This document shows positions 11,481 to 64,000 of a stretch of 64,000 nt of DNA, in pieces. Position numbers and translations under genes: made by a program. The notes below the pieces were generated by a model. It saw nothing but the letters and a program-made list of their open reading frames with translations, made no database searches and was not told the origin of the DNA. Source of the DNA: Marsupella aquatica (Eukaryota; Plantae; Marchantiophyta); NCBI GenBank assembly GCA_973895155.1, contig OZ316892.1:5488476-5552475 (forward strand), given 5' to 3'. Position 1 is the stretch's first letter. Each line of letters opens with the position of its first letter.

Positions 11481-11483
11481 ACC

Positions 11484-11791
11484 CCCGGCCTCGGGGGTTT
11501 CACTTCCACAAAAATGGCACATCACGTGCGACGAAGGATAGGGTCGTTTTATTGGTTTAAAGGGAAGACTTAAGAATTTTTGTAGAAGAACAATAGGGTC
11601 TTTTAAATTCAATTTTGAGACTTATAAGAACATTAGGGTCTTTCTAACCAAATTTTTGAAATATTCCAAGAATATTCCAACTTTATAGGGGTTGAAAAAT
11701 AATATATTTTTCTTACATTTTAGGGGTCCGAGGCCTAAAAACGTCATAGGGGATGGGGAGGCATCCATATAGTGAGACCCCCGAGCCCCTG
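11484..11791. mobile_element. ~308-bp MITE-like insertion between Copia gag and protease
   Basis: Imperfect 21-bp terminal inverted repeats (CCCGGCCTCGGGGGTTTCACT / AGTGAGACCCCCGAGCCCCTG), AT-rich core, interrupts the gag-pol frame (..LLNDE | YALCTSS..DVWILD). No clear TSD. Confidence 0.65.
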
Positions 11792-11794
11792 GCT

Positions 11795-18200: not shown

Positions 18201-18293
18201 CTGGAATGTGGGTCGCACCACAAATGGCATTGAAGTCGGCCACGGGAGCAATAGGAGACAATGATGAGCAAGAGAATGATACTAAGGAACAAG

Positions 18294-40727: not shown

Positions 40728-43700
40728 CTACCTGATTTGAACTGTTGGGGATAGTGTCCGAGGGGATTGAATAGGTATAGAATGTCTTCGAAGAGGAGAT
40801 CTGGGTCTAGTAGAATTTGGCAGTGCGCTTGTTGGTTGTGCAGGAGATTGGGGAGCAGGGGACTTTGATTGGGGAGATCGAGATTGAGGGAATTGACTGC
40901 AATCTATTCCACTTCCAGAGTTTTGATAACGGTTGCCATTGCTCTTGCTCCCACTATTTGTGTTGAATCCGGAACGGACGTCAGTGGCATAGGACATTTG
41001 TTGGCGAGGTAAAATCACCCCCGTAGACGCCCCTATTTTGGACATCCAAGAGGATGTATCATCGGGCCAAGAGGGAGGACCAGCATTATCTGTGGCCAGG
41101 GAGCCATGAGCTGGAGAGGAATTGGCCTCACCATTGACCATTGTATTGGGTGCTCTCACAAGATGAGCTGGCCTATACTGAACTTTCGAAGAAGCCGAAC
41201 TAGTTGATGGTGCTCCCGTTGCAGCCGCAGCAGCTGCAGAAGCAAATTTTCCCATACAGCAGGGTCGGCTACCAGCAGTAGTTACGTAAGATGTCGGCAA
41301 GCCAGGGCCTGTGCCATTTGCGTTAGGTGCCAAGTTTATAGGAGATACAAAATTGCCGTCAGGGATATTGTAGGGAGCTGTTGAAAAAGAATGACCAGAG
41401 GGTATTGAGGGTTTGAACGGAACTGTAGGACTGGCGTTTCCGCCGATACTGCTTGACGACGAGAGTGATGTTCCAGTGCCATTGGCATCAACCATGGACC
41501 GTGATGCCAAAATATTATTCGCAGGGTATGAGAGACCATTCGGTAGCCTGAAGAGATACCGTGATGAGACTCCACCCTGCCCAAGTTTGGCAAGTTGAGT
41601 TTCTGTCAACTGCTGGTTCAGCCACCTGCGTCAACAAACGATCTGAGTTTCAGCTTGTTATTCTGATACGAGCTTATATAAAGGTTTAACCATGCCAGAG
41701 TACGGTAATAAACCCCAAAACGGCTTCATCGAGGCTCTTGCCTTAATCGGGTGAACTCGATCCAGAAAAGGATCTGCAGATAACTAAACCAGGTAACAAA
41801 TTTCACTGCGTCTTGAATGAAACTATTTAGTTTTGTCTGAACTCACTAGTACATGGAGTCATAGCTCTTGCTTTCCAGAAATTTTTCACAACTTTAGCAG
41901 TTTCCTTTTGATTGCGTGATGACAAGGTCTCCCATATTCGCTACCGCTTACAATCTCTTGATGGAATTCGTTGGTTGACAGATCTTTGAATTATCCAGAC
42001 CATTTATTTTTCCTCATAGAATCCTTGCTGTAGGGGTGTGTTAAGGAGAGCCTTTAAGAGTGAAGCCCTTGCAAGTTCCAAGAACGGAAGGACAGAAGAA
42101 ATGAGGCATTTTCGGCTGGCAAATTGCCTCTCGGAGAACTTACTGAACCAATTGCTGATTCGATTTCACAAGCTCGTGAGCCTCATCTAGCTTCCCTTGC
42201 AAATCTGTTGTCTGTCATCCGTCAGAAACACAGAGTAAGTCCTTCCAAAGCGGATAAAAACTTGCCTCAAACAAATACAATGGTTGGTGCTATCCCTGGA
42301 CGACAAAGGTGACAGGAAGAACAGCTGTAGCTAAATAGATCAAACCTTCTTCTTCAAACTCTCATTATCAGTCTTCAGATGGTCCACTTCATGTCGTAAT
42401 AAGTGGATGTCGCTGAGTCCTTTGTCAATGGCATTCTGCTTCTCCTGGAGCAAGGTGTCTTGCTGTGATGTGACTTGTCCTTTTAGCTTCACCTTTGACT
42501 TCATGGATCGGAGCTCCAGCTGTTCACATTTTTACATAAACTATCAGCTTCACCCAATTTCTCAATCACATTTCCTGAATCGATGATATGTCGGCTCAAA
42601 TCACCACAACAGTGTTGGGATTACGTGAGTGGCTCGAGCGCTGTGAGAGATTGTGTCGAGTCAGTCTTCAAGGTCAGGTAGTTGAAGTCGTTCAAAGTGA
42701 CGATCTCTATCGATGAAGTCCGTTTGAGTTGAATTACAAGACATGACGAAGCTAAGAAGTGCAGCGAAGAGAACGAATAATCTCACCTGCAATTTCTCAA
42801 TTATTTGGTAGCATTTCGTGATCTCAGCTGCGCTGGCACTGGATCTCTCCTCAGCACGATCAGCGGCAGCTTGAGCTTCCTTCCAGGATCCCTCCAATGC
42901 TGATCTGAATTTTGTTCCATAAGATTGTCAACTCGACATGATGTTTGAGGGGGGCGGCTTCTTTGCAGCGGATATTGCCAATGAACGTCAAAATTTGTCG
43001 ACCCCAAGATACATTCGCATACACGACTACTAACTAACGGAGACGACATTTGAAGAAAGATTTGCTAAAAAAAGGATTCCACACCTATGGGAACCCTCTT
43101 TATCCAGCTGCATCGTCAAATTTGCCACCAAATCATTCTTATCCTGAACCTGCCAAACAAATCATACATTACCCAGAAAGAATTAACTCTTCGATACATG
43201 ACAAGATGTATCAAAATGTCTTTCCACGTGATAATTTCTTTTTCTTCTGTCAGTACGAGAGAGGAACATCGCCCCAAAAGAACAGGAGAGATGGATCCTC
43301 ACTTCCTGCTCCAACGCACTAAGGCGAATAAGGTGACGATTCAGCTGCTTCGTATTTTCGTGTTTATCAGAATCCAGGGTGCGGTTTTCCCTACGTAGGC
43401 GCTCACACTCCTGTGAAGAACAGGTCTTAAATTATCACTTTGTCCGATGATACTTGCAAATTGGAGGGATTCCTTTACGAAAGCAATATCCATGTACACA
43501 TTTATATTTGATGTGCGTTTTCAAGGGGGAAAAAACATTCTACATCGTATCGAAAATAATAAAACGTTGCAGACCCCAGCAGGTGTTTACCTGCTGCTTC
43601 TCATCCAAGTCCTTCTCCACAGCAACAAACTTTGTGCGGAGTTCAGTGACTTTGGTGTCTAGCTTGTACTTGCTGTCCAATAGGGTCCGAACCTGTATAT

Positions 43701-46670
43701 AGGTCCATCAGAACACGGGGCTCCATTCACCACACAAGTAATGACCATACGTTCGGTCTCTTATTCCTCTCTTCATGGACAAACCGTCGTTTCGCGCCTT
43801 TTCGCAGAATATATATTCCTCGCAAAAATATATATATGTTTTTCGGGATTCCTAGGAAAAAGAGTGGAATCTGTTCTATTCACTACACTAGCAGTAATTT
43901 TCTGCAACAAAGAGCTTCTGCATTATATCTATATATTTATTCCTTCACAAATTTCATATTTCATGAGCCCAACTTCGGAAATGTTGTTAAACCTCAGGTT
44001 CGCTTTTTTCAAGTAGAAATGGTTGGAAGGTGCTTCAAATTCTCTTCGGACGGAAGGTTCGTTTGTAAGAAAAAAGGAACGACTCGCAGACCTGTTTATC
44101 AAGCTCAGTGGCACGCTCCTGCTGAATATCTGCTTGCTGTCTAAGTCTGGCCTCCAACTCTTTTCGTTCTCTCTCCAACCGTTCCTTCAACTCGGCTGAC
44201 TCTTGCATTGCCTAATTTGTTTCATCAAAAATGGAACAAGTTTGGGTACCTCTATAAGGAATAATTACAGTAAACGGTTTGTACAATCACGCGATCCATC
44301 TCCTTTATGAAGCATTTGCATTGCGACGTTTTCATAAAGGTTATGCACAACTTTATGTTCAATTAAGAATCCAATAAATATGGATTCATGAATTCCACGA
44401 TCTTCGTAATCAGGGAAGACCACGCCAGATGGATTAAATTTGCCAGCTAAACGCATTACAGGGAGGTTCCTGAACCGGAAGCCTTCCTTCTGGACAGGCT
44501 TTACAGCCAGCTAAAAATGCGGATACTTAACGAACCCTTCAAAAGTTTGAAAGACATCCAAACCTTCTCTTTCTCATGAGCAATCTCAAGAGCGTACTCT
44601 GCTTTCAGTTCATTGTTAGAACTAGTTTGTTTTTCCTTGAGTTCAGCGACTTCACTGGGAGAAGAAGAGAGTATCAGATAAATGGTGCTCAACTATACAT
44701 TTTTGAGAGTTCACAAAATGGCAGAGACAATTTTTCCTCTTCGGTAATGTTCAGAGGCATCCAAACAGCTCTTACTAGCCAAAATGGGACAGACTAAGGT
44801 CAGGTAAGTGGACGCTAGGTAGGTAAAGCTGGCAACAATCACAAAGCTATGATTGTGTGATGAGAATGCCATACAAAGAATAAAGCAGACGAAGAGTAAC
44901 CACAAAAGACTGGGACAAAAGTACATGCCTACAACATTACCTGCTCAAGTTGTCGACATCATATAAGGCATTTTCTAAAGAAAGTAAAGTCCGCCTCAGC
45001 TTCTCATGTAGATCCAAGTTGATCGTCTGTCAAATACATTAGACGTGGAGTAGGTATTACTGAGGGACCAAAAACATGTCAAACCAGGCAGATGAAAGGA
45101 GGCCGTGGGATAAGGACATGGGCATGAATTGCAATGCGAACAGGGAAATTCCTTCGAACTGATATGGTCTAAGTCTGGCCGGCTGACGAAAAATAGGTTT
45201 CTCTACTTTTTGAATTGCACAGTCAATTATCTCAATCTCAAACTAGGAATCTCTCCACGAGACCCACTCACAACGACAAGATTTTACAAGAAAAAGAGGA
45301 CCACTGTCAACTTGTATCGAAAATTAGCCACCCTCATAAATATTGTTTAGCACCGATTTTGAATTCGGAACCTTGGGTAACCACATGTCTGGATTCAAAT
45401 ATGTACATCGGAGGATGGAAATGGGTAGCCTCCAGAAATGATATTCTCAAATAATTGATTATCAGAAGGTGGGTCTATTCCAAAGGGCTTGCGTCACACA
45501 ATTAGCTCTCAACTTCGCAAAAATCTTGCAATCGATCTGTAAAATGAAAGGAACTTAAGGCAGGGAACAGAATGTCATTGACCCTCTGCAGAGTGGAAAT
45601 CACTTCCGTGGTCATATAAGTTTCCCATTTATCACACAGCGAACATTATTGCTTTTAGATCGTGGGTGGATGACTTGTGTTTATTACCTTGAACTCCGCC
45701 AACCTCCCAGCCAGATAACTTTTAATGGTTTGATCATTTCCTTGTCGGAAGCACAAGGAGATGTGGCTCAGGTGCTTGAACTGATTTGTCTCAACAATAC
45801 TGAAGCTTGAATCCCCTGTCCGTACGTTCAAGATTGCCAAAAACCTGCAGATAATAACGGGACAGATAGATCAATAACTCTAAAGAACAGTGCAGACACC
45901 TGGCTCCTCTTTCTCTGTCACAGAATATCGTCAAAAGCCTCTACTAGCAATTAGAAGTGCAGGCTATAATACCTATGTGCACATTCAGAATGTCACATGA
46001 GCAATCTTGAATTTGCGTACCTTGGGTTATCGTTGCAACCTGACACTATGCATTGCTCCAAAAGCTCTATGAATTTGTAGGGAAAGGTTGAAAAATCCAC
46101 AAGAATACATTGTTCGACTTTCAAGCTTTGAAAATCATCTTCATTTACGTCCAAAGAATAGAAGAAAAACGGGTCCCCTTCGCTTGTGATTTGCACCTGC
46201 AGGACCTGGGGATACAAAGAGGACCAATCAGACTTCGTTGTCTATGAAATTGAAAATGTGTGATTGAAAATCACTGAAAAAAATCACGCCCTGTTGGTTG
46301 CAGGGGGATAAGGGCTGGCGGAGCAGGGGTGTTGCACAGTGTTCTCTGCAAACATACACCTCCTTTGAAACTAATCTGATGATGGGAAATTCGCATCCAT
46401 CAAGTTGAAAAGTTGACCAATCCACAAATCCCAAATCTGCACGTTCGCAGATGTTTCTTCCCCACCCCCCTAATCTTCCTCATCAGTCTGGACGAGGACC
46501 AGCGTTCATACCTTACTTGTACGATGAAGCTTGTTGACGCCCACAATAAAGCGGACGGTCAAATCCATGTGTCGGTCTTCAGAACCACATTTTGTAATCC
46601 TGACTGGAATGACCTTCTCAAACAATGTGGAAGTGCTCTCCATCGCGCTCCTCTTAAATATATCGTCCAT
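40728..46670 (-). CDS. SAS6: Spindle assembly abnormal protein 6 (centriole cartwheel protein), about 13 exons
   Basis: Head domain ITSEGDPFFFYSLDVNEDDFQSLKVEQCILVDFSTFP..., VETNQFKHLSHISLCF; coiled coil ending KSNQQLVQWLNQQL. Phase-consistent GT-AG exons: 46670-46512, 46205-46021, 45844-45688, 45026-44941, 44654-44564, 44211-44092, 43692-43591, 43410-43303, 43149-43085, 42904-42787, 42519-42346, 42211-42144, 41625-40728. Start codon (46670 vs 46808) and last exon are uncertain. Confidence 0.92.
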
Positions 46671-49600
46671 CTGAATCCGCGACATAGAAATTGACTCTCT
46701 ACCATTGACCATGTGGTTGCAGCTCGCATCAGAGACACGATCACGAAAGTGCAATCCACATGGGAATGATGATGAACCAACGTTTGACATGAATCCTAGG
46801 TCGTTCATGTGGCTCGAAGCTGATGTTTTCAAAGAACCTACGTCCTAGGTCCTCCAATCGATTGCGAGCCTCACGTCCACAATCTTCCATGAAGCTTGAT
46901 TCCAACCGGGACATGATGTCCCAATCCCCAGCAGCTGACGCATTTCCATACTAAATCCGTTTCTCCGCTGCTCTAGTCATGCCGTGATCAAGGATAGCCA
47001 CCCTCGATCTATCCTTGATCGACAATTCTGTATCATCGTTCCCTTAGCTGAAACTCCGACATGGGCCTGGTGATCAACCCTGAGTACCTAATGATGAGGG
47101 GAAGATGGGTTACACACGTGATCAGCAAAAGGTGATGGAGGTTTCCGAATGAGCAGCTAGGGCCTCTCGTGACTCGCCGCCACAAAGACAATCCGTGCAG
47201 AAATATCAGGAATTTGTCCACCGGGCCTGACCATGATCGCCAACGCGCTAACGGCTCTAGGAAAAAATTAACGTCTGGTCTGTCCGCAGGGAAAACTGAT
47301 GGGTAGTGGGGTGAAGAGCCGGTTAAGTCAAGAGAGTCGCGCACAAGGAAAGAACGTGATAAGCCGGAGGATGGCCGGGTCTTTCTTGTTTCTGCAAGTG
47401 CATGTAACTGCTTCCGCAAGCACCACTGTACACTCTGCGCTACACATATCCAGCCACACAATGTACTACATGAGCGCTTCTGCGCCTTGTAATCGAGGTC
47501 TCAATAACCTGCAAGAACTCTACCTTGAGCCACTGTTCGATCACCGATATACATTACTGAGGACGGTCCCCTTGCTGCACCTAAAAGCCTGTCGATTAAG
47601 ATTGTAGCAGAAATTGAAGGCTAGGACAGGAGAATTCTACCGGAATGTTGCGAGATCTTCTTGATCCTGTTTGGTTTGAGTTGTAGTCAGAACGTTCATG
47701 GAATCAATACGTGGGTCTAAGCTTTCTTAGGGACTCTCCAAAGTATCAAGAGTTTTACGTAATGATCTCTCTCCCAATATTGGTCACCACCATCAACTCG
47801 AGGTCTGTCGCTGGCACTTCAGCGGTCATTGGGTTGAACATGGTGGTGCAAAAGGTTTTTCTCCTTTCATCGGCTTTTTGAGCACCAGGTTCGAAGCAAG
47901 GCAGGAGGGCCATCAAGAGAAATGGTGGTGTTGACAAGGATAAATTTACTGAATGTGCAAGATCGTAACAGAGGATCTTTCTCGTCTCTGTTTTGCTCTG
48001 TCCATTCTCACCCATATATGTTCTTTGCTTACAATGGGTCTCTGGAAGGCTTAGAAACAACGACAGATTGAAGAGGCAAACGACAAGACTGACTAGGTTG
48101 AAATTACATTAACTTTAATTGCAACTGTTGTTCAATATTCGCGCCTCATCGTTTGTTGTTTCCCTTTTGCAGGGAAAAAGTGAAAAGAAGTTTGGGCTCG
48201 AGGGTGAAGGTTTCGGTCTACATTTTACATTCATTGGAACTTTCTTTCTCGACCTTCAAGCTACAAACTAAGCTAATGATCCTATTGTAAGCCATTCATT
48301 TCAAGCTTGCTTGCCGAGAGATCTCACTGTTGTTACCAACACCTGGGCCAGCATACTCCACCAGATTTATTCCCTAGGCACGAGTAGACAGCACTGAATT
48401 GGTTACAAATAATTGAAACTTTCCAGTCGGATCTGTTGGTGAGTCACACGTTTCGAAACTTGCCGAAATGCCTGACTTTGTTTATTCTGACCACTTGGGG
48501 CCCATACCATGCTGCTGTTTTCTCCCTAGTTTACAAAGTCAATCGCCACTGAAGAATTGGTGGAGTGAGCTTGGGGTCTCGCCCTCGGATGATTTGCAGA
48601 CAAAGCTTCTTGAACAGTAGTTTACATTAGCCTAACCGGAGGTAAGATGCATTGATTTCGATTGGAAGTAAGGTTATGAAACTCATTCGAGCTTGCAATG
48701 TCGTTTGTCCCTTCTTTGCTTTGTCTTAGATCTTTGTGCTCTGTTAGCAATGTACAAGGATGCAGTGTATTCATTCTGCTGCTGGGAGTGCGTGTAGTCT
48801 TGATTGTTGATAAGCAAGACAAGAGCACTCCGTAAGGAACCCTTACGCCTAAAATTTAATTATTAGAGCTTTTACGGAGCAGAGCGGCCTGTGCGACTAA
48901 AACATATTAAACGAGCGCAGAAGCAAACAGCAGGATGGAATTATACAATGAGGTACGACATTCAGGATTTTGGGCAAGATACTACTTCAGCAATGCTGGG
49001 TTCTCAGCTGTTACCTTAGTGCTGTTTGAGGTTACGAACTCCGGCTTGTAACTGTGAGTGAGCCACGATCATGTAAGCTATTAGCTGGATGAAAGCTTGG
49101 ACTCTCCTTCCACCCTGTGGCCGGCTTCGTCATTAGAATGGTCTCCTGCTGAAGCTCCGGCTACCTTGCATTGTGATAAGTTCTCGCCTTGACCAAGGTT
49201 ATGCAATGGAATGACCTTCCGTTTCCGATCGAGAACATGGTAGTTCAGTTTTGAAGCCTACGTGTAGTACCATCATGTGAGCTCTGTTGGCTTGGGTATT
49301 AAAGCAACGGCTGCTGATGCATCCTTTTTTCGCTCTACCACGTTGCCAATCGAAACATCTAAAACAGGTCCAGGGTCGCATCCTAAATTCTTCAAAGGTT
49401 TCACTGTTTCACAGAGGTCAACTTATAAATTTGATATCTCCACTTCCTTCATTTTCGGTTATAGTGAGCCCCACATTCTCGAACACTGTTTCTGACATTG
49501 ACATGGTTCGCTTTCAAACAAGGTGGGTCACCGGTTGCAATGTCGGTGACGAATTTTGGTCTTAGATCCTCGTATATCTAGGGTAGATCTCGGCCCTGTA

Positions 49601-51996
49601 GATTCTGAGTTGTTTTTAGTGCTGGCAATAGTCTCCTGCATTTCACTAGAGCCATCAAAGTCGGTTCATATTTCAAAATAGCTTGATTGATTTTTATTTG
49701 TCGATTATATTTTGAATTGCAAAACAAGACCAATGCTATGGTTGCACGAACTTGGGTAAGTTGCCCTTACTTTGCACATGGCTGAAGATTTCGTTCCGAA
49801 TGCATGGGAAAAGTTCTGTCAAAACAACCCAACCCTATCTACCGTCTTCACTTAGAGAAGAGCTTCAGCTTTGCGCATGTCCTGATTGAAACTGTGGTGG
49901 AGGATCAGGTAGGGACGGAGTACGGATTTTCCAATGGAGCATGAAAGGGCAATGTTTCTGCAGTGGAGAGTTGGGATTGGTGAGAAGAGTTGTCTACTTT
50001 GTGCCGAATTGCAATGTTTTGTGCCAAAGTTCCCCAGATGAGAAGCTTTGTAATAGATGAAACTGGACTTTGGAAGCAGTGAACGGGTATAACATTTCCA
50101 CCATTGGTGATCCTAGATTTTCACCCAATTTTGATTGATTCTTTCTGCTAATTAAGTTGATATCTACGACAGTAAGAAATTGAGTTTGGAAATCATCTTC
50201 CTTGCTTTGTCGAGTTTCTTGTGTCTTTCTACAGGGTGACTACTCCTCCTCCAGCTTGATTGGGCAGGCATGTGGGTTCGAATCCCACTGGAGGTTATCA
50301 AGATTTCGGTGAGAAGAATTCACGGAACCCAACTACTGAACTGTAATTTGTCATAATCGATAAGGGAGTCGAAAAAGTCTTTTAACTTGAAAATGAAGTG
50401 TCACGAAATACGAAGTAACATTTAGGAAAACAAGCCAGAAATAAGATCAGACTGCAATTTGATTTTGCGCACAACACAGCATAATCTCTCTAAAATGAAA
50501 GTGGAAATTTGGGATAAGGGAGGACTGAGTCCCATGGAAACCACAAACTTTAAAAGTTGTCCAAATATGAACAATGGTGATAAGTGTCAAAGGATTATGA
50601 TGGTGAGCTTGGATCCGTCCGACATGTGATAAGCATGTTTATTTGTGGTCATGGATGTTTAGATAGGAAATAAAAATATTGCAAGGCACAATTTGGTCAG
50701 TCATCCTACGGTAAGGTCTTCAAATCTAGGTCCAACATCGGAGCACTCTATTTTGGAGATGAATTGACACATCAGAAGAATAGGAGAGACGTTAACGACA
50801 CCATCATCATCTGATTCGTTTCATTCGGATATCTCATGAGAGTTTGTGAAGGGGAGCAAAGTTGGATCTGTACAGTGTGCGTCAGGAACCGCAACGGAAA
50901 CTGTATCCAGTCCCTAATTGTCAAAAATCAATTGCTGGAGATAGATCGCAATTAGGAGTGGTGAAATACCCTGACCGATGTTGGCAACAAGGGCATGCAT
51001 GCAGTTCGCACCGTGTGCTGCATCCCAGTTCTACCAATGAAACAAGCATTCCACAGAAATTAAATCCCAGTCGCATACACAATCCTTCCGGTGACATTCG
51101 CCCATCACCAGGGACTGTAATTTGGACTGTATCCAAGCACAGAGTACCAAATCCAACCACGGTGTCCCTAGTCAACGATTTAAAACAGAGTTTGTCTAGT
51201 ATCAACAAAGAGGACGGCCAGAAATTACATAACAGAGTCAAAATCGTGTTCTGACGGCCACACTAAAGTCCACTTCACAAAGTCATACTTCACAAATGGC
51301 CAAAAGAGGAATCGCTCACTTTTGGTTGAGGGATATCGTTGAGGATTAGACAAACAGGCAACGTCGCGTAGTCGTGATCGAGATCACAGTGACACAACAA
51401 ACTGCAGCCATGCACGGACGCGTGACGGTGAGTGATCTAGGCAGACGAAAATCTTCGTGGGTACTGACTAGTCAACATCAGAATCAAGGAGGAGTTGCGA
51501 ATCCAACGACATTTTGTGCACTCCAGATAAGATTTTGGCCTAAGTGAAGGCTGCAAGTCTGTTTCCTATAATTGTCAACGAAAATTCGCCACTGATTCTG
51601 GAAGAGAAACACCAGGATGCGATCCCTCAAAAAGTTTCGTTATTTTTAGACTCTAAGAATTGCTTGCGCATATAGTTGGGCAAATTGACAAATCGCCCTG
51701 TAGGAATCAATGCGACTTACAATCAGGACAATTACTATGTCACACTCATAAAGAACAAAATGCGTCAAACCTGGAGACAAGATACCAAAGGCCCAAATAA
51801 ATGGGACAACCAAGTGAGAGGAAGACCGGGAGCCAACTCTCACATAATAAATGCGGACAGAAGCATCAATCCAAGTACAGTCGTTGAACGAAATCTATGA
51901 GCCCATGTGAAGTCAAGAAACATGGAGTGCCAAATTGAAACGAGGCATGAGTGAAAAATAATCATAAAAGGAGTTCTGTTTGATTTGCTAATACCG

Positions 51997-52098
51997 ACAA
52001 CATGAGTTGAGACAATTGCTTTGCAACTACACAACATGAGTTGAGACAATTGCTTTGCAACTAGACAACATGAGTTGTGACATTTGCTTTGCAACTAG
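51997..52098. repeat. 3 x 34-bp tandem repeat
   Basis: ACAACATGAGTTGAGACAATTGCTTTGCAACTAS units, no spacers. Confidence 0.92.
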
Positions 52099-53909
52099 AG
52101 TACGTCTCAGTGACTGGACACATGTCTAGATGCACAAAGTGACTAAAGTTTTGATGGACCTCCACGTTTACAAAAATGCTCAGGATATACTTTTAGACTT
52201 TTGCAGCTGAGACAGACTTATTTTCTGTTCAGATGGTAGTATGGTACATATTACACTGGTAAGGCAGATATGACAAGAATACCAGACAAGTCATCTTTAG
52301 GAACCTGTAGGTCTCACAATTCTCATTCGTAGCTGTTGCACAATTTGATTCCCTCTACATGCACGGCGTTGCAGATCTAGAATGAACAGTCTCCTCTGGG
52401 TGTGCATGAAATGACTCAGGGTTTGCACTGCCTCTATTCTCAGATTGTTGTTTCTTTAAATAGGCAAGAGTGCAATTTCATCATTTTGTCTCGGATTTTG
52501 TGAGCAACCAGAATATATTTGCTTGGGAAGTCAAAAGAAAAAAGATAGTTGACCAGGAGCTTACTGTCTAGGAATTGGCATCCCAGGTAGTAAATTTGAG
52601 AATATTCTATCATAGTGATAGAGTACCCATGGTGGGATATTTGAGAATATAAATAGTAAAAGTAGCCATTGTAGGATATTTGTGCAATAGAAAATCGTGA
52701 GATCAAGTAGTGGGACCTTTGTGTCTCTGTGACGTTCCCTGTAATTGCAGATCAAAATGTGCTACTGTACTCTGTAATATGTTAATTATTTCCTAATATC
52801 ATAATGAACCCAATCATTTTGTTTAAATCACTTAGTGTTGTTCACAGTGACCACAGTATACTGTTGCATACCATGAAAATCCAATTACTCAGTCTCTCTA
52901 ACTAAATCACTGAGTGTTATTCACATTTTTTATATACAATTAGGGAGTAAAAAAGGAGGTGGTACTCCCCTTGTCATGTTTTGATGTACAACTATCAGGA
53001 CGAGTAAGAAAGGAGGTGGAACCCCCCCTGAGTGGATGGAAAACCAATATTCTCACCTTCCCTGTACATACTGTAGTAATATTCCTCACTTCAGGTACTG
53101 ACGTGAAATGCACTTCTCACCATATCACTTAGTCCCAGGTGCCCTTTCCTCCACTCGCCCTTAGTAACTTGGGTAGGGTAGTCACGGGAGGATCTTTCGA
53201 ACAACGGCACAGGACGGAAATAACAAATGCTTAATTAGGGCATCTCAAACTATCGATTTCCCGGGTCGTTTTACTGTGCCAAAATTGCGCGGGCAGGGCC
53301 GTGACCGGAAAGTGGGCGGTGCCCAAAATCGGTGACCGTCAATAACTCGGACGGTCACATTACCGTTACCGTGACCCGAGTGGGTCCATGACTAACCCTA
53401 TCGTCTGAGGGACGCAGTGACAGAAAAACTAGCTGCGCGCGACAGAGAAGCCGGGGATGTGTGCGACAGAGAAACTGTTCCTTCTCGCACTGTGCGTGTT
53501 TGTGCGACTACATGCAGGGCGCCCATGATCGCAAGGCTGTCAACTCATAGCGATTGACACTTTTTTCCTGTAAGTTTGTTATGGTTTTGGGCTCCCACTT
53601 AAGCAAGTCATTTAGAGTACAGGAGATCGCTTTAGGCTGACATGCTAGAGCTGCATGTTGATGCTCGATTTTGTGAGCAGCTGCCAGTGAGGAGCTGCCA
53701 GTGAGGAGCTGCAAGTGAGTGTAAACAAAACTACGGCTAAGTGTAAAGGACCCACCTTCGACAATCTGAGAGGCTACGACTGAGCATACTTGCAGGACGA
53801 CCCCGATTGTTTGGCACTCGACTCACACCTGATTGTAAGTTAAAGATCACCTCAATGTTTTTCCGCTTTTGTTTCCTGCAATGCTCACAACCAGGACAAG
53901 GGATGTTGA

Positions 53910-54542
53910 ATGGCTGAATGCTTCGTCGTTTGCCAGGAGGCCATGGCTCATTGGATTTCTTTGTCAGACGTGGGGGAGAAGAGAGCTAGAGGCATGAGTA
54001 CGCAGTTCGCACCGTCTTTAGTTTGGGCAGCAAACTACACAGCTCGAAATCCCTACCCTCAAAAATTTGTTTACTCCTCTTGCCCTCATAGGGACAATGA
54101 TGGACATCGATGTAACAAATCTTTGGAATGGGGCGATAAATGTGGACATCACTTACCTGGAGAACCTGCCTTTCGATTCCAACTGGTCTTGTTTGATGCC
54201 ATTCATGGTGGTGTGCAGCCTGTGACAGTCTTGCTGTGGAATTGCGCTACCATTCTCTTGAATTATACAGCACTTGAATTCAGCATTCTACCTGAATTTG
54301 AGCAAATTCAGATTGTTTATGACATTCTGAAGCATTCGCCCAAGCTACAAGTCTCTCTTGAAGTGAAGGGACTCGAGATGCACATTCAGAGATTGAGTTT
54401 TGTGGATCCTGGAATTCCCAGGACACCTACAAAAACCCTTGTCAAATCGAAGTCCAGTCCTGGGAAACCTAAGAGTGCCAAGAAAATCCTAGCAGACCTC
54501 GTGTTGCAATTGAAGAATGCAGATTTAGAGGACTTGGATTAG
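53910..54542 (+). CDS. RPA70 C-terminal (DBD-C, zinc-ribbon OB-fold)-like protein inside the Harbinger-type element
   Basis: KFVYSSCPHRDNDGHRCNKSL...CGHH...PAFRFQLVLFD...VTVLLWNCATILLNYTALEF matches the RPA1-C pattern F.Y.ACP....C.KK...C..C...Y...L.I.D...VT.F......LG.SA.EL. Intact 210 aa. Confidence 0.72.
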   Translation: MAECFVVCQEAMAHWISLSDVGEKRARGMSTQFAPSLVWAANYTARNPYPQKFVYSSCPHRDNDGHRCNKSLEWGDKCGHHLPGEPAFRFQLVLFDAIHGGVQPVTVLLWNCATILLNYTALEFSILPEFEQIQIVYDILKHSPKLQVSLEVKGLEMHIQRLSFVDPGIPRTPTKTLVKSKSSPGKPKSAKKILADLVLQLKNADLEDLD

Positions 54543-54704
54543 GGATTACAATTGTATGCACTCGGCCCTCATATTCAGGATGTATACACTTTCAGGATGC
54601 GCAATGTTGCAAGCTTAGAAAGAAATTTATACTTATTGAATAAAATTTGGCTCATTTTGGTATAAACTGACTTTATCACTTCTTCACAGCTGTTAGGGTC
54701 GAAC

Positions 54705-56055
54705 ATGCCTCGGTTTTCAGACAGGCAAAGAGGCTTGAAACGAGTCAAACAGCAACTTGAACTAGCCATTGTTGTTCAGAGTTCGAAGAGTTCTCAAGAT
54801 ACTGGATCTGAAGACCTCGACCTCCATGGATTCTCTGAAGTTGACTCTCATATTTCTGAGAGGACTGACAATGATTCAGACTTGCCTTTGGATAGCTCAT
54901 CTGAGGATCAAAACAGGGAAGAAAATTTGGAGAATGATGAGAATCCAACAGACCTCTTAGAGCTATATTTTGTGTTGTATAATACTCGTTATTTTGTTCA
55001 TCGTCATGTGAGCCTGAAATCTAAGGAATTTGCACAACAGTTCTTTCATTGCTTGGCAGATCCTTTGTTTAGGCAGCTCACGAGGATGGACAAGTCCTCT
55101 TTCTATCACCTTCTAGGCTTGATTGAAGGACACCCTGTCTTCCAGAATGAATCGAATTGTCAGCAAGCACCTATTGAGGCCCAATTAGCTGTCTGCCTAG
55201 ACAGGCTTGGTCATGATGGGAATGGTGCTTGCTTAAATCATATGATCCCCACATGGGGCGTGAGTTGTGGTTCAATTGTCAACTACTCAAAACATGCCTT
55301 TGAGGCTTTGGATGATGTTTTAAGCGACTATATCCAGTGGCCTACCAGCAGGGAACGAGCTGCAAGTTTGGAGGCATTTGCAAGGTTGGGATTTCCAGGC
55401 TGTATCAGTCTAATTGATGGAAGCCTGTGCCCCTTGGCTCAACGTCCTGGCGTTCATGGAGAGTGCTACTATGATCGCAAGAGTCGATATTCCATAAATG
55501 TACAGGTGGTCTGTGACCACCGCAGAAGAATCATGTTCTTGTTCTCAGGTGAGCAGTTATTTTCAACGTTGAATATGTTGAATGAGGCAGCAGTATCCAG
55601 TATCAACCAATGACTGCTACTATTTGTGCCTTGCTGCAGGAATGCCTAGATCATGCTCCGACCTGGCTTGTGTGCGAAAGTCTCCACTCTTTTTCTTTCT
55701 GACTGATGTCAGAAAGAATGCTCTATTTGAATCTGACCAGTACATTTTAGGAGATTCAGGCTATCAAGCCCTTCCACACATGGTTTCTGCATTTAAAAGG
55801 ACTGACATGGTACCAGATAAAGAGAACTTCAATACTTGTGTTGCCAAGTGCAGGGTAACCAATGAGCACTGCATTGGAGTTTTGAAGAGCAGATGGCATT
55901 CTTTAAAAGAAGTTCAAACTCAATTGAATTCAAAGAAGGACAGCCTATGGATGGTAAGGTGGATCAATTTGTGTGGGAAATTGCATAACTATGTGCTTCA
56001 CAGGCAGGATGCATGGACACCCGAGGATATTGCGCTGCAGAGAGCAAGATGGTGA
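54705..56055 (+). CDS. Harbinger/HARBI1-type DDE transposase (intron 55549-55639; C-terminus possibly frameshifted)
   Basis: FRQLTRM, QLAVCLDRLG, IDGS, YYDRKSRYSINVQVVCD, G.P.S.SD, LGDSGY, RVTNEHCIGVLKSRW, LHN. Confidence 0.9.
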
Positions 56056-56869
56056 AACCCAGGAGGACTTCTATCCAGAGCCCAATGTTGGTGGACCGGC
56101 TAATGCAGAGCGAGACCCTGGGGTACGTAGTTTCGCGATGTGCTCTGGTGCGAGCTGGCAATGCACTACTAGTTTGAGTTATGGATACTGCTTTGGAACA
56201 CTATCGTCAACCGGGGCAATTTTTACACCGTGAAGCTTGATTGGTCAAACATAGCTCATAGGATCTGTTTGTTTAACAGCCAATGATTGGCCGGCTTCCT
56301 TGTTCAAACGTAGCTGGGAGGACTTAAGCATAGCTGGTAGGAGTTACCTGGTGGTAGGAGGTAGCAGATGATTAAAGCCAATGATCAGCTGTAGCTTAAT
56401 TAGTTACAAGCTGTAGTTTGGTACCAACTTAGTCAAATGCCTTGAGCATTTAAAAGCTCGGCTCTGCAATTTTGTAATCTCGCCACTTCTAAAATATGTG
56501 CTTGCATTGTGGGCACTTGAAGACATACAATTGTGATATGTAAAGCTTCTATTGTCTTGGAATGAAGTAAGTTTTCAATGCACAATCCAGTCTACAATGG
56601 AGATCTTCATAAATTAGCCCAGTGTTGCAAAGAGCAGTGGAGATGCATGCTTATATACCCAGACTGTCAATCATGGTCCAGAGAGAAGAACAAATAGGAT
56701 CCACTTGAGAATTGCAAACAAATGTTCAAGAGGACTTCATTGAAAACACATCTGGACATTTCACAAAAGAGTTCAACCTTTATTCAAAATTTGAGCCTTG
56801 CAGCATAGCAATGTCTGGAAGGCTGCATCGACAAATTGGGTAATGTGCAGCTAAGTGTATGTAAAAAAA

Positions 56870-58246
56870 CTATTCATCTAAGTCAATTGGCGTGTTGGGA
56901 GCACATGGCATTGCAGTAGTAGGAGGATGAGTCCTTCCGGGTGGATTGACATTGATAGGACCAGGGGGAAAATACTCAATAGCGCTACCAACTTTTGATC
57001 TGTTGCTCCTAACAAGCTCGGTAAGTAACGTTGTGTGCTGTTGGCGATCAATCAAATCCACCTGGTGTTTGTGCTCCAACCGTGCCCTCTTCTCCTCATG
57101 TCTCCTTTGCATTCGATTGTTTTTGTCTACTTGCATCCTCTGCAATCAGATGTTTTTGTCTAGCTGAGCTGCAGCAACTTTTCTCGCCTCTCGCCTATCA
57201 ACCAATTCTTGGGTTCTCCACTTATCCTTGGTCTGGATCATCTCTTGCCTGTACAACGATTTGTCACTAAGCTTATCTAAATAAAGATCAGCCATACTTG
57301 TCCTTGACTGTGCCTGTGATGATGGTGGAGCTGATCTCTTATTAGGAACCCGCCTTTGCCCATTCCCGATCGGAGTTGGAGTTGGGATTGGCCTAGCTTG
57401 TGACTCCTCCTCAACATATCCTGGTGTCCCAGTATTAGCAGTAGTACCCTGCTCAGTGGCGCAAGGTTGGGCCTCGGTTTCAACACCAGCATTGGTCACG
57501 CCTTCGTGCTCCCGTTCGTGCTGCGTCTGTGGTCCGTTGTCGCCAGCCATCTCAAATTCATCCTGTTGCGGGCCAACACTGTCACCATAGGGCTCTTCTT
57601 CATCAGCACCTGGATCATATATGAGCTCAGGCTGTCCAGGGATACCGCATTGCCCTAGTGCAGGAGGAGCCACATTAGCACGCTCCCCATAAAGTGCATT
57701 CATCCTTTCAAAGTGCGGGCATATCTTGTCAAGCTTATCGTCAAGTGTAATCCCCACTCTTAGCTCTGCCAGGGTGAGCCCAGCACCCGAATCATTCTTC
57801 ATTGCCAACGCCTCCTTAAACTTGCTCGTGTATCTGCCAAATCTCTTGCCCAAATTCTCTCCTGTTTGGACAAACTTTGCAAATCCGTTGGAATGCAGCA
57901 TAATAAGCATAAGCTTAAACACAGTTTTCTTCGACGGATGCTTATCGCCAACCGATAGCCTTGATTGTGTCCCATGAAGCATTGCATAGTTATCAGCATT
58001 TTCGAGCCAATCAACGATCTTTGATAGGTCCTCCCTAGACAACTTCTTGTTCTCAGTAGGAATGTTCACGGCCGGACGTGGTGCAGGTCTTCCTTGTGCT
58101 CCAGCTGATGCACCAGCAACCACCATCGCTTTGACTGTCTGAGAATCTCTCACAATCAGAGGGGGCGAATCCAAAAACTGAAAGTGCTCTGCTTCAACAC
58201 GTTCACCTGCAAAGTTAACACCTTCGTGGTCCATTGTATAGTCCAT
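56870..58246 (-). pseudogene. Harbinger ORF2 (Myb/SANT/trihelix-like DNA-binding partner) with one in-frame TGA at 57146-57148
   Basis: IVDWLEN..NY...G, SGAGLT, KLDKICPHFERMNALYG.R.NV, acidic linker, C-terminal coiled coil continuing in frame to 56870. Confidence 0.75.
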
Positions 58247-58300
58247 AAGGAGCCTAACTCGCACTACCCAGATTTTTGAGAAATTCTGAGGGGGAACGAC

Positions 58301-58775
58301 CCCGGGTACGCAACTCTTGTATAATTGGCAGGGGTCTACATTTTTATATGGACTAAAAAGTTGGCTATACAAAATTATTAAAATTTGAAAAAACCTGGGT
58401 TTTCCACTTTTAAAAAATTTCAAGTCATATAAAAGGTTTGGTTCTCCTCTTTTTCCATATGAAATTAAAAAATATTCCTATACATGTTGTAGTTTTTATT
58501 AAAAGATTTTTAAAATTTTAATAAAAATCCTAAAAAGCTGGCTAGTTTGGCTGTAGACCCCTGTATTAAAAAAAAGTCATATAATTTGGTTTTGATCAAC
58601 CTTTTATACATCAAAACATATTCGGAATTTTTTTTAAGTTACATTTTTGGATTCCTTGAGTTGAGAGGTACAAGACTTTAGTAAACTAAAATGAAATCTA
58701 AGATGGTCTAAGGATATAGGGTCATTATAAGGAATTAAAAACTTGATTTATAAAAAGGGGAGTTGCATACCCGGG
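58301..58775. mobile_element. 475-bp MITE nested in the Harbinger-type element, 8-bp TSD
   Basis: TIR CCCGGGTACGCAACTC / GAGTTGCATACCCGGG; TSD GGAACGAC at 58293-58300 and 58776-58783; AT-rich core. Confidence 0.88.
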
Positions 58776-60224
58776 GGAACGACAACTTTCAAATCTCTCA
58801 GCCAAAACGGCTGCACATTCATGGCTCTTTGTCAAAATATGCGCAAATTGTGAGGAGTGGAAGCACTACATCATGCCGTGTCAAGTTTGCATTTTGAACT
58901 ACACATGGGCAGGGGCTGGTTTGGAAGTCTGCGTAATCCGCGGGGGGGCACTTATTGACCCCTCTCAAAGTTAGTATCCCCAGGGTTAAACTCACCCGGA
59001 ACTGAGGTTCCAGTCACCGTTTCGGACCTCAACTTGGGGGGACGGCCGTCCGGGAAAAGACTCGGACGGCCAAGTTTGAGACGCCCTATTGGTTCAATCA
59101 GTCTTCATGTCACGTGACCGAAGAGAACAAAGGACTTTTGGTCACTGGCCTGGTTAAGAATACTGTCCTGGCCTTTCCAGCCCAAATTGTTAACGAAGAC
59201 AAAAATTGAACAGGACTACGGTAGCCGTATCGATTGGATGGTTCAAGACTGCATCACAAGTGGGGTACCCAGCCCAACAGAAAATGTACGTCGGCAGCTT
59301 TTCTTCTGTTTGTGTCAATTGGAATGCCAATGCTTACTCACGTTGAGCATTTTGTGAAAAGTTCGTCCGGAGCAATCAGAGTACCAAATAGAATAATTTG
59401 ATCGATCGAGCATTCACATACGGATAGGCAAGGAAGATTGAAGACAGATGAGAATACGATTGCTGGTCGAATGCTGAATGCATCCACCACCTGGGAACAG
59501 ACACATATGTCCAGTTAGACAGTTAGACTTGGCAAGTTGGGACTGAGAGAGGACGTAGGTAGTACTCTGCTGAGCGGTAGTACCAGTTAGTAGAGAATAA
59601 GTACTTAGACGGGTTGAATTGAGAGTACTAATACTATCCTGGGCTTGCACTTGGTACTTATTTGAATTGGAGTGCCCACTGGGTACTTCTACTAGCGGGT
59701 AGTGAGCACCCAAGATTATGCAGTAACAAATCCAAAGCCATGAACGTCCTCTGTGCAGCTTTCTTCATGATTGTCACTGGAGTGGATTGATATAAGAGAA
59801 TATCCACTTTCAGATTTGTTCGGCATCACTGTCCCTAGAATTCTGAATCTTTCCAATAAAAACAATAAGGTTTGTTGTCACAGCGCAGACCATGGACAAT
59901 CGGATTTGAATAACGTCAAATCGGCTAGCCGTCTGTCTATGTCCAGAACTTGCGGATTTCTTGGAACTTATCTATTTCTGCGAGAGGTTATCTGTGGATA
60001 GCTCAGGTTGCACAATTCTTGGACCTTATCTAATTCTGGACGGTGCTGAACTGTAGCTGGAGTTTGATGGAAGTTTAATGGCGTGCGGGCAGCACGTCGG
60101 TCGATCAGACCGATCGAGTACAACCGCGCTGCGTGTCCAGCAGTTTAATCGGCCGATCTGTCCTCCTGCATTGAACTGATTGCTACATGCATCGGGATCA
60201 TAGCGCAAATAATGGTCGTTCAAC

Positions 60225-60400
60225 TCCTTCGTCAATGGATGAGGAGATTGAAGTAGTGGTGCTGAACGTTGAGATTTTCGGGAGAGGACAGTGAGTACCT
60301 GGTGGGAGTTTCCTTCGTCCATGGATGAGGAGATTGATCGAAGTGGTGGTCCTGAACGTTGAGATTTTCGGGAGAGGACAGTAAGTACCTAGTGGGAGTT
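60225..60400. repeat. 2 x ~88-bp tandem duplication upstream of IPT
   Basis: TCCTTCGTC.ATGGATGAGGAGATTGA...GTGGGAGTT at 60225-60310 and 60311-60400. Confidence 0.9.
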
Positions 60401-60800
60401 GGTGAGCTCACCAATATTCCCTCCGTCATATTCCGACTGCTCCTCGAGCTTGGACGATTCATTCTGAAGAATACCAATACTGAACGCTAGATTGCTGGTC
60501 TCGCTGAAAGTATCTTCATGGGGCGATGGCAGTCCGGAAACATGTAAGGTTCTTGCTTCAGACACGTGGGGCGTCAGGGTCATCCCATTGTGCCGAAAAT
60601 CGAGTCGACATCATACAAATACGTCAATAAAATCCTGATTTACCCTTGTGAACTCACACCATAACTCTAGCTTGCGGAATCCGAATTACTTCATAACCTT
60701 CTTTCCTCTCCCATCTTGCACACTCTGTTACTCCGATATTCGTCTCTTCAGCAGCCAGCACGAGCTGCAACTTCAATTCAACTGCAGTGGAGCTTCATAG

Positions 60801-61958
60801 ATGGCCCCCCGCAGGACTGTAATCGCCATTGTCGGTCCCACCGGGACGGGCAAGACTGCGCTTGGCCTCGCAATCGCTACACACCTCGGCACCGAAGTCA
60901 TTTCTGTCGACTCGCTTCAATGCTACAAGCACGGGCAAATCATCACAGCCGCTCCCAAAGCAGCCGAGAGGGAGCAAGTGAAGCACCACATGGTAGGTTA
61001 TTTGCAGCCAGACGAAGAGCCTGGAGAAGAGTTTGCGCTGCGGGCGGTGGCGGTGGCCGACGGGCTGCATGCGAAGGGCAAGATCCCTGTGCTGGTTGGC
61101 GGCAGCACGAGCCTGATGTTGCCGCTGCTGTTTTCTCCAGCTCGTGGTTCAGACAATGAGCAGACTCTGAAAGGCTCGTCCAATGATGCAGTGGGGAAGA
61201 ATCTTGGACGGCTGCGGTGGCGGACGCTGGTAATCGTACTCAATGCCAAGACTCAGGAGTGCCTGGAAAAGATATTAGACGCCCGGGTGGAGGACATGTT
61301 GGCAACGGGGTTGGTGAAGGAATTGCAGGAGTCCTTGTATTCGCTGCAAAAGAAGCTGCTGCCCGGGCAGAATGGGAGTAATCTGAGGAGGGGTGTGTGG
61401 AAATGTATTGGGTATCAGGAGCTGTATCCCTTTTTGGTTGCGACAGACGACACTCTGCAGAGAGTCGCTCCAAGCCCAGAGATTTCACCACGAGAGAACA
61501 ATGGGAATGGGAATGCGAACAGGCTAGTGGAGGAGGTGGCGATAGGGGAGCTGGCAAAGGGGTTGTTCAGGGAGGGAATTGAGCTGATGAAAGAAAATAC
61601 ACGGCGGTATGCGCAATGGCAGACCACGTGGGCGCAGAGCGTACTAGTGCCTGCTTTGAGGACGGAGGGGATGCCAGTGCACTGGTTTGAGATCCCATCT
61701 GAGACCTGTGTGGACGAGCGAGAAAAAGATGGAGGATTTTCGAATAGGTGGGTGGAGAGTGTGGAAGGACCAGCCATGAGGCTTTGTGAGGCTTGGAGGG
61801 CGGCGGCGCAAGAAGATGATGCTGGTCCTGGTGCCGTCGCGGCCGCGGTGGGAGAGGTAATGAAGGAGATTATAAATGTCCAGAAGTTTCAACAATGGGG
61901 GGACTCAGATCGGGATGGTATCTACTATCGTCATGGTTCGTTCTTGACGGCAGGATGA
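60801..61958 (+). CDS. IPT: Isopentenyl(dimethylallyl)transferase, IPT/MiaA family (cytokinin biosynthesis or tRNA modification), intronless
   Basis: GPTGTGKT P-loop, ISVDSLQCYK, HHMVG, VLVGGS, RVEDMLATGL, IGYQEL, TRRYA..Q..W; no C-terminal zinc finger. Confidence 0.92.
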   Translation: MAPRRTVIAIVGPTGTGKTALGLAIATHLGTEVISVDSLQCYKHGQIITAAPKAAEREQVKHHMVGYLQPDEEPGEEFALRAVAVADGLHAKGKIPVLVGGSTSLMLPLLFSPARGSDNEQTLKGSSNDAVGKNLGRLRWRTLVIVLNAKTQECLEKILDARVEDMLATGLVKELQESLYSLQKKLLPGQNGSNLRRGVWKCIGYQELYPFLVATDDTLQRVAPSPEISPRENNGNGNANRLVEEVAIGELAKGLFREGIELMKENTRRYAQWQTTWAQSVLVPALRTEGMPVHWFEIPSETCVDEREKDGGFSNRWVESVEGPAMRLCEAWRAAAQEDDAGPGAVAAAVGEVMKEIINVQKFQQWGDSDRDGIYYRHGSFLTAG

Positions 61959-62854
61959 TGTATACAACTTCTAAATTAATCGATCGACCTCCATAGATTC
62001 GACGGGGATGATGATGAAATCGAAGCATTACAGTATCTTCTTCCCCAGTTTGCTCCGTCCGGCCAGCTAGAGCTTCAGAGGAATAACATATACTTTGCTA
62101 ACTTTGCTGGGATGGTTTCCGAGGCTAAGAACGGTTCATTCAGCTAGAATGGACGCAGAGATCTCAGTCAGTAGATCCGTTAATATTGAACCGAGTCCAC
62201 CATAGACATACAGTGAGAGTGATTGCTGATTGAAATAATCTCAAGTCCTTGTAGAGCGAGAGAGCATTCTGTGAAATTTTGTATCGGAGGGAATCTACTC
62301 CGGATGCAGTATATATGGACCGAGTTTGGAGGGGAGACGCAGTTGAAGGAATGTTTCTCCCTCGATCTAGAAACAATATTAATACCAAGAGTTCCAGAAC
62401 GATGTAGGATTTAGCTCTGCATGCAGCTTTTCGGTAACTTAGCTCATTCAAGCACATGGGCTCCCTGGTTTCGGAGTCCGGAGTTCAAGTTCGGACTTCA
62501 TAGTTATATCGGCTCCCTGGTTTCGGAGTTCTAGTAGCATAAAATTATAGTGAAGAATCGCATATTGAAAAACAACTTAACTCTTCCAATATAGTTTCTT
62601 CATCTGGAAACTGTTTCGTGATGTTTAGGTTGGATCTAATTTATTTGTGACTGTTTCATCGTATTTGCTAAAATTGAGTGAATCAAATACAAGAGTAGAA
62701 GTACAACTAATGCAAAGAAATTATATTTTACATAATGTTCAGAAAAAGTATCTACACACTCTGACTAATAAAGGATCCGACTCTTTTGTAAGCATCCTCT
62801 TCAGTGTATTTGTTAAGGTTTTTAATTGGTTTTTTATATTTAGCCAGTGTGGCG

Positions 62855-63133
62855 ATGTTTGTTTCTGTAAGGGAGGAGATTCTAAAAATATTCTCCTTCC
62901 AACTCTACTCTTCTCCTTTAGCCAAATTCCACTTCCCCAAAAAACTTTAGCCACTTTTGGCTAATATTTGCTGCATTTTTTTTTACACCATTAGCCACTC
63001 TTCCACCAAATCATGGACCCCATTGTCCAGAATCTAACGGTTCTCCTTAAAACTATGGATATCATCACAATTTAATTCAGTAAAATCTGATAGAGAATAT
63101 TTTTAGAATCTCCTCCCTTAGAGAAATAAACAT
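62855..63133. mobile_element. MITE-like inverted-repeat element
   Basis: 41-bp inverted repeats (62855-62895 / 63093-63133) with about 2 mismatches; true ends may lie further out. Confidence 0.65.
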
Positions 63134-63399
63134 TTTTCAAAAAATTAAATCCCATACTAAGCCATATATTCCCATGTTTATGTGCAGTGGACCCTCTAAA
63201 ATTTTGCTAAAACAGATTTTTGTCCTTCCTCAGTTGGGCCCACAACATCTTTAAGGCTAGGACATCCTTTATGCAACTACTTATTTTCCACAACATCTAC
63301 TATGCAATGACATCATTCTTATGTGCAATTCATGGGTGCTAAACATGACTATATGGCCAGGATGATACATAACATACCCCAATAACTACCTCATCAATG

Positions 63400-63727
63400 A
63401 AGTTTACATTTTTTTTCCTCGCCTTGACATATTTTCTCATTTTGACATATTTTTCTCTCCCCAACATCTTTTCATCACCTTGACATTTGTTTTTTTTGTC
63501 TCGAGGTCTTTTCCTCATCTCAACAGTCATCTTTTCTTGTCCCAAGATTGTTTTCTCTCCTTGACATCTCTTTCTCACATCACAAACATTTTTTCACATC
63601 ATTTGACATCTTTTCCCACCTCAACACGGGCCTCAACATTTTCTCACCTTGACATCTTTCTCACATCACAAACATTTTTTCACATTGACATCTTTTCCCA
63701 CCTCAACATTTTCTCACCTTGACATCT
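63400..63727. repeat. Degenerate CATTTTCTCACCTTGACAT-type tandem array
   Basis: Repeated TGACAT/CAACAT plus T-run units of about 18-20 bp. Confidence 0.7.
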
Positions 63728-64000
63728 TCTGTGTAATGCATGGGCATGGGGCTCCTAAGTTTATGATATAACTGAGGTACAAAAGTGTTGTGCGCATAAA
63801 GTACAAATACTCATTTCCCTTAGGTAATGACACACATCAGTCAAAATCATGAGCTGAGGAAACAAAACCTCAAGGATAACTTAAAACACGATATGTCCAC
63901 CTTGACGTCATTTAGAATCATTGAATCCTTCATTTTGTTCTCTCAATGATGAGACCAGAGAGACTCTCTCTGGTAGTAGATATTCCTTGAGATTTGCTAG

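Follow-up and report, generated by a model that had tools for sequence, protein, structure and literature searches.

The 64,000-nucleotide stretch of Marsupella aquatica DNA analysed here (the window) is transposon-rich and eukaryotic, with Ty3, copia, Helitron, and Harbinger elements alongside a hevein gene, a SAS6 gene, and an isopentenyltransferase (IPT) gene. A Ty3-type retroelement with a stop-interrupted pol and an extra 925-aa coiled-coil ORF (3–7993, + strand) is followed by a copia element (9280–12844, −), a DUF7869 element (16239–18307, +), and a Helitron (21197–25539, −). The hevein gene (36306–36932, +) is a single frame with two chitin-binding domains, a hydrophobic N terminus, and a hydrophobic tail; among PDB entries it most closely matches wheat germ agglutinins. 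SAS6, which encodes a centriole protein, is a multi-exon gene on the minus strand (approximately 40728–46685); 12 coding exons were located, and Pfam SAS-6_N matched on two exons. Its presence in the window indicates a host with centrioles or flagellated cells; SAS6 is not known from ascomycetes and has been lost from most seed plants. No tRNA genes were found in the 64-kb window.

Between SAS6 and the IPT gene lies a PIF/Harbinger element (53237–59087, strand not assigned), which contains an interrupted transposase (54666–56055, +), a partner ORF (57146–58477, −), and an extra ORF (53910–54542). Its 15-nt terminal inverted repeats match at 14 of 15 positions and a matching 3-nt target duplication is present on both sides, a pattern compatible with genuine insertion of the element between the flanks on the SAS6 and IPT sides, although a 3-nt match alone is weak. 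The preliminary description had relied on linkage of the IPT gene to SAS6. SAS6 is indeed present in the window, but it lies ∼14 kb from the IPT gene, beyond the 5.85-kb Harbinger element. Several smaller repeats can also be seen. A very high-depth MITE with an apparent 7–8-nt target duplication is nested in the Harbinger element (58300–58776), and a tandem duplication of ∼86–90 nt (60225–60400) precedes the IPT start by ∼400 nt. Downstream of the IPT gene, a MITE-like inverted repeat with 55-nt arms (62855–63133) and a degenerate array of 18–19-nt repeats (63411–63730) both occur at high depth in the sequencing runs.

The IPT gene (60801–61958, +) is intronless and encodes a protein of 385 aa (P0001), assigned below to the ascomycete adenylate-IPT family. 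Its frame is intact, with the ATG immediately 3′ of an in-frame stop, and a frame of 385 codons was obtained in 0 of 500 dinucleotide-resampled copies of 59088–64000, the longest being 200. P0001 matches Pfam IPPT (9.1e-28) and IPT (1.6e-08), both exceeding the cut-off, and these matches, together with the P-loop Thr and the catalytic Asp and Arg, make it a member of the IPT/IPPT superfamily. Against TIGR00174 (MiaA) it scored 123.7 bits, short of the cut-off of 148.65. The sequence features first reported for this gene were recovered: all five quoted motifs are found in the translation, and the coding region has no intron, because it is one frame colinear with its homologs. As had also been stated, the C2H2 zinc-finger pattern of eukaryotic tRNA-IPTs is absent from P0001, and likewise from its four closest relatives, and was detected in an Umbelopsis tRNA-IPT used as a positive control. 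The GC content is 0.56 for the gene versus 0.47 and 0.39 for the 1-kb flanks, again as described, and 0.45 for the window, with 2.9% of windows of the same size being equally GC-rich. GC3s is 0.61 for the IPT gene versus 0.37–0.50 for its neighbours, a comparison with three short stretches from which no evidence of origin was drawn. P0001 has no transit-peptide-like N-terminal extension, and no LOG domain is fused to it by Pfam scan or homolog alignment. A scan of 193 frames, upstream and close by, detected neither a LOG nor a P450; the window extends only 2 kb downstream of the IPT gene.

The stretch was found in five sequencing runs, belonging to three studies and carrying two organism labels. 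One run, X1, may be the window's own source: its contigs at 44636–52026, 52034–53311, 59059–60291, 60353–61010, and 61807–62946 show 0 differences at a depth of 16–23. On either side, these contigs reach into the ends of the Harbinger element at similar depth; none of them spans the element, and no single contig from any run joins SAS6 to the IPT gene. The missing bridge could speak for fungal contamination or a chimeric assembly, but the matching target duplication flanking the intervening Harbinger element and the identical contigs reaching both of its ends argue against such an artefact. In addition, runs from three studies have contigs that continue past the start codon into flanking DNA, among them X3 and X5 from the two other studies, with X5 several percent divergent. 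X1 further contains a second copy that is 87–89% identical (22/204, 33/270, and 36/279 letters differ) and departs from the window sequence just 5′ of the start and near the end; it was read as a paralog, and contig depth was not taken as copy number. Contamination is unlikely because three studies have runs in which the gene is joined to its flank, the gene is present in a second copy, and Calypogeia fissa has homologs on long contigs, one of 66.6 Mb. The genome setting is moreover plant-like, and the nearest fungal protein is merely 38–40% identical to P0001. An artefact is thus extremely improbable, and the earlier conclusion that this is not simple contamination stands.

To place P0001 among its relatives, sequence searches were carried out, which returned 115 matches from 7,995 candidates. 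The closest were a Logan protein (79% identity), C. fissa (60%), and a JGI protein (P0004, 55%); these liverwort-like matches were followed by 21 fungal-family proteins (29–39%) and then by bacterial MiaA, and none of the 115 was a named plant IPT from a known class. P0004 comes from a 1.7-kb metagenome contig and has the loops of the liverwort-like clade; it could be a protein of another bryophyte or of a fungus near the donor. C. fissa encodes three family proteins, 60–61% identical to P0001; being its nearest named relatives, they point to a leafy liverwort as the likely host. The location of the IPT gene among transposons might suggest a silent or decaying insertion, but the frames of P0001, P0002, and the three C. 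fissa proteins are all intact (60–79% identity) and change is concentrated in the loops: between P0001 and C. fissa the core is 74% identical and the loops 34%, and the core is more conserved across the clade. Decay is accordingly very unlikely, and by sequence at least two liverwort-like lineages have conserved and duplicated the gene. No family member from a moss or from Marchantia was found among the proteins searched, in which many bryophyte genomes are not represented.

A profile of the family ranked 90 members before the first tRNA-IPT among the 120 matches listed of 978, and a second profile, for which 12 fungal members were the sole input, gave 240–267 bits for the six liverwort-like proteins, compared with 214 for the best of 150 eukaryotic tRNA-IPT-type proteins. 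When 1.84 billion representatives were searched with HMMER, the best 150 comprised 23 family-type and 127 eukaryotic tRNA-IPT-type sequences, with one representative of the liverwort-like clade; 9 of the 127 carry names (fungi, oomycete, and animal), and none of the 150 was recognised as a plant adenylate IPT by the motifs of that class. Named family members outside the liverworts are all ascomycete, spanning the Dothideo-, Leotio-, Sordario-, and Eurotiomycetes, with the exception of P0010 (KAB8343006.1), labelled Carpinus fangiana. As P0010 clusters with Zymoseptoria (support 99/96), it is likely a fungal contaminant of the C. fangiana assembly. Those of Fusarium, Claviceps, Clonostachys, Ilyonectria, Dactylonectria, and Ustilaginoidea are mostly IPT-LOG fusions, and stand-alone members occur in Cenococcum, Cadophora, Botryosphaeria, Venturia, Zymoseptoria, Pleosporales, and Penicillium; the best-scoring fungal relatives of P0001 are stand-alone IPTs of the Cenococcum cluster and not fusions. 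In two metagenome scans, none of 56 candidate stretches was confirmed in the first and 2 of 87 in the second, one being a bacterial miaA (L001) and the other a 44-residue edge match (L002), and viral contigs yielded 0 of 93. All 65 plasmid records were below 60% identity and the named ones among the 25 listed were miaA, so no bacterial donor is indicated. An extra search aimed at plant tRNA-IPTs gave 48 matches, none with a plant name.

Phylogenetic trees of 59, 42, 174, and 73 rows were constructed from about 450 proteins, hand-chosen for spread, with fragments omitted and fused proteins trimmed to the IPT domain; their scope is bacterial, fungal, animal, and protist, with no plant tRNA-IPT or adenylate IPT in any of them. 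The liverwort-like clade received support of 100/100 in the 59-row and 42-row trees, and in both it grouped with the fungal family at 100/99, away from both MiaA and the tRNA-IPTs of fungi, animals, and protists. The kinship with ascomycete IPT and IPT-LOG enzymes noted in the preliminary description is thus borne out by the searches, these trees, and the fungal-only profile, and P0001 is by sequence a member of the ascomycete adenylate-IPT family (that of the IPT-LOG IPT domain) and not an IPT-LOG fusion. The claim that it is fungus-derived is thereby supported in part, for the kinship but not yet for the direction of transfer. The liverwort-like clade, on a long stem (0.6–1.0), nested weakly inside the fungi, with support of 90/41 and 82/52 (59 rows), at an open fork (42 rows), or with SH-aLRT 82 (a quick tree), and a sister position to the fungal members was not rejected (p-AU 0.434 and 0.481). 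With MiaA outgroups, the family was sister to all sampled eukaryotic tRNA-IPTs; a quick core-column tree put it within fungal tRNA-IPTs (SH-aLRT 82–89), but constraining the family to lie outside them improved on the unconstrained quick tree by 3.5 log-units (p-AU 0.559), and an origin within fungal tRNA-IPTs is not supported. Because the trees do not show direction (AU p = 0.43–0.56), it was taken from distribution: deep diversity across four ascomycete classes versus one shallow liverwort-like clade, and publications in which liverworts and mosses have no IPTs other than class I tRNA-IPTs. On this basis, transfer from fungus to liverwort appears probable.

The catalytic residues of P0001 were located by alignment. 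The P-loop (residues 12–19, 60834–60857, +), aligned to 2zm5, includes Thr14, the equivalent of E. coli MiaA Thr19 and Tzs Thr10, which contacts the DMAPP pyrophosphate (PMC8234997). The catalytic base Asp37 is followed by Ser38 (60909–60914, +), at the position of the ATP-binding Lys63 of hop IPT, and the catalytic Arg162 (61284–61286, +) corresponds to MiaA Arg217 and Tzs Arg138. Lys201 (61401–61403, +) aligns with the phosphate-binding Lys220 of hop IPT, where yeast Mod5 has Gln. Thr14, Asp37, Arg162, and Lys201 show no variation across all 75 family rows; the Thr, Asp, and Arg of Tzs, MiaA, and hop IPT are described as serving DMAPP activation and N6 deprotonation (PMC8234997). Of the three hop lysines, K63, K220, and K275, only the second is kept, the positions in P0001 being Ser38, Lys201, and Trp277.

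The family lacks the 70–75 residues of the tRNA-binding insertion domain, the site of which is a short low-confidence loop in P0001 (approximately residues 111–139, 61131–61217, +). The segment at this site is 46–55 aa in the liverwort-like clade and 32–34 aa in 70 fungal members; a cruder measure gave 56 for P0001 versus 94–114 in nine MiaA/Mod5 proteins. With the insertion domain and zinc finger missing and the catalytic residues kept, the adenylate-type anatomy proposed at the outset is upheld. The liverwort-like clade differs from the fungal members in three extra loops, a longer C terminus, and Ala51, where fungal members have Lys, Arg, or Gln. Yeast Mod5 is the best sequence match to P0001 among solved structures, as might be expected of a reduced tRNA-IPT still modifying A37 of tRNA. 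Against this reading, besides the missing domains, the tRNA-binding Lys56 of MiaA is replaced by Ala51, its Arg167 and Arg170 would fall in the missing stretch, and the score is under the MiaA cut-off. A tRNA substrate is therefore most improbable.

A structure model of P0001 (pLDDT 81) matched the hop adenylate IPT best (Z 30.3, rmsd 2.6, 278/289 aligned), followed by Mod5 (Z 28.8, rmsd 4.3, 280/402 aligned), and Atlas features put plant adenylate IPT clusters on top (26 of 30 matches). Sequence profiles favour Mod5 instead: one profile scored 207.6 for yeast Mod5 versus 130.6 for hop IPT, and a liverwort-only profile 123 versus 68.8. Because fold favours hop IPT while the profiles favour Mod5, the resemblance to hop was read as convergent loss of tRNA binding. 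It could instead reflect an old adenylate-IPT lineage akin to seed-plant ATP/ADP-IPTs, or one from an unsampled eukaryote, that some liverworts retained and ascomycetes later received. Such an origin would account for the fold and feature rankings and for the insertion loss, GGS.S motif, and Lys201 position common to P0001 and hop IPT, and it is compatible with the unrejected sister position and with a family not nested within fungal tRNA-IPTs. However, the profiles, the Mod5-like Ser38, Trp200, and Trp277, the absence of a recognisable plant adenylate IPT from the best 150 representatives, and the much greater diversity on the fungal side all point the other way, and many losses would be needed because sampled liverworts, mosses, and lycophytes have class I enzymes only. 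A plant or third-party origin is consequently judged improbable.

Compared with known systems, P0001 is closest to the ascomycete IPT-LOGs (CpIPT-LOG; Fusarium IPTLOG1/2 and FCK1) and their stand-alone relatives, at 36% identity to Claviceps IPT-LOG over 329 columns and 38% to Cenococcum, with the same invariant residues and, likewise, neither insertion domain nor zinc finger; it differs from them in its plant genome, its lack of LOG fusion, and the clade-specific loops, Ala51, and C terminus. With the seed-plant adenylate IPT of hop (HlIPT, PDB 3a8t) it shares the fold, Thr/Asp/Arg, the Lys220 equivalent, and an intronless gene, but identity is ∼23–26%, Lys63 and Lys275 are replaced by Ser and Trp, and profiles score hop below Mod5. 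The class II tRNA-IPT Mod5 (PDB 3eph) has GVW and C-terminal W..L.P features in common with P0001, which nevertheless falls outside the tRNA-IPT clade without either tRNA-binding domain or zinc finger. Bryophyte class I tRNA-IPTs (MpIPT1/2 and PpIPT1–7) and MiaA share the IPPT family and catalytic residues, whereas P0001 is under the MiaA cut-off and lacks the insertion and any transit-peptide-like extension. The bacterial and Dictyostelium AMP-IPTs (Tzs/Tmr, PDB 2ze5) have in common with P0001 its predicted substrate, AMP, but are remote (26.4 bits, fold Z 17) and are not the source.

The reading that best accommodates these observations, and which we think reasonably likely, is that an ascomycete-family IPT resides in the nuclear genome, probably came from an ascomycete at a time before Calypogeia and this lineage diverged, and would convert AMP to iPRMP without tRNA. 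The enzyme would transfer dimethylallyl from DMAPP to N6 of free AMP, presumably in the cytosol because there is no N-terminal extension; the host's own LOG would then free iP from iPRMP, and the gene would have a role in hormone supply. tRNA-IPTs grip the anticodon stem between the core and the insertion domain. AMP is favoured over ADP or ATP because Ser38 and Trp277 replace two hop lysines and because CpIPT-LOG does not use ADP or ATP as substrates, as stated in a review (PMC7913349); overexpression of Fusarium IPTLOG is reported to give higher iP (PMC5203792). P0001 is thus likely an adenylate-type, AMP-using cytokinin synthase.

The same fungal origin and chemistry could serve another purpose, namely a specialised adenine metabolite (discadenine-like, for defence, or for signalling to fungal partners) or an altered acceptor. 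The substrate of the clade may have shifted, because the stem is long and Ala51 and three loop insertions are specific to it; the lineage-specific duplications are also in keeping with a shift, as are the many fungus-derived liverwort genes said to act in biotic interactions (PMC12513842) and the low total cytokinins (12.6–20.2 pmol/g FW) given for four Jungermanniales profiled (PMC4431756), which may or may not carry the gene. Nonetheless, the known catalytic residues are all kept, and iPRMP would meet LOG and cytokinin signalling, both described in Marchantia (PMC9729187, bioRxiv 10.64898/2026.10.12.758437), which makes a purpose other than hormone supply unlikely, though it carries some weight. 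For the broader proposal, we lean slightly towards the view that some leafy liverworts took up and duplicated a synthase of plant-associated ascomycetes and domesticated it as their own rate-limiting hormone enzyme, giving an AMP-based, tRNA-independent pathway that arose apart from that of seed plants. It would be the first IPT of adenylate type in any land plant outside the seed plants.

In the surveys consulted, liverworts, mosses, and lycophytes have class I tRNA-IPTs only and adenylate (ATP/ADP) IPTs are reported from seed plants only (PMC6071968, PMC7049300, PMC10338860), with class I alone in sampled liverworts and mosses also supported by PMC9729187 and PMC4036517; how bryophytes produce iP and tZ without adenylate IPTs is posed as an open question (PMC4036517). 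The IPT gene offers a specific candidate, open to assay, for making cytokinin independently of tRNA in one bryophyte lineage. With no member found in mosses or Marchantia, it leaves the moss problem unsolved. No report of a liverwort IPT of fungal or adenylate type was found by title or abstract, most subscription papers lying outside this search. Dong et al. 2025 describe 1,809 transferred families (PMC12513842); "cytokinin" is absent from the main text and the IPT term from one supplementary file of that work, and its Supplementary Data 8–11 may list the family. The fungus-to-liverwort transfers MTPSL, FBT lectin, YANB, EUPF, and RDS1 resemble this gene in being intronless, transposon-rich in setting, and ascomycete-like, but as described they are defence, stress, and metabolite genes, with none for cytokinin biosynthesis among them (PMC12513842, PMC12448838). 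The present gene would be a case of a core hormone enzyme of likely fungal origin and, if the proposal is true, of a microbial hormone-manipulation enzyme turned into a plant's own.

On the fungal side, stand-alone family members were noted in Cenococcum geophilum, Botryosphaeria, Cadophora, Venturia, Zymoseptoria, and Penicillium (P0128, P0139, P0180, P0287, P0303, and P0312). A single tRNA-IPT ortholog and no others had been stated for Dothideomycetes (PMC5521058); because stand-alone members were found despite this, IPTs for de novo cytokinin synthesis seem to occur more broadly among ascomycetes than has been described. The fungal family thus extends beyond the Claviceps and Fusarium fusions and includes the ectomycorrhizal Cenococcum.
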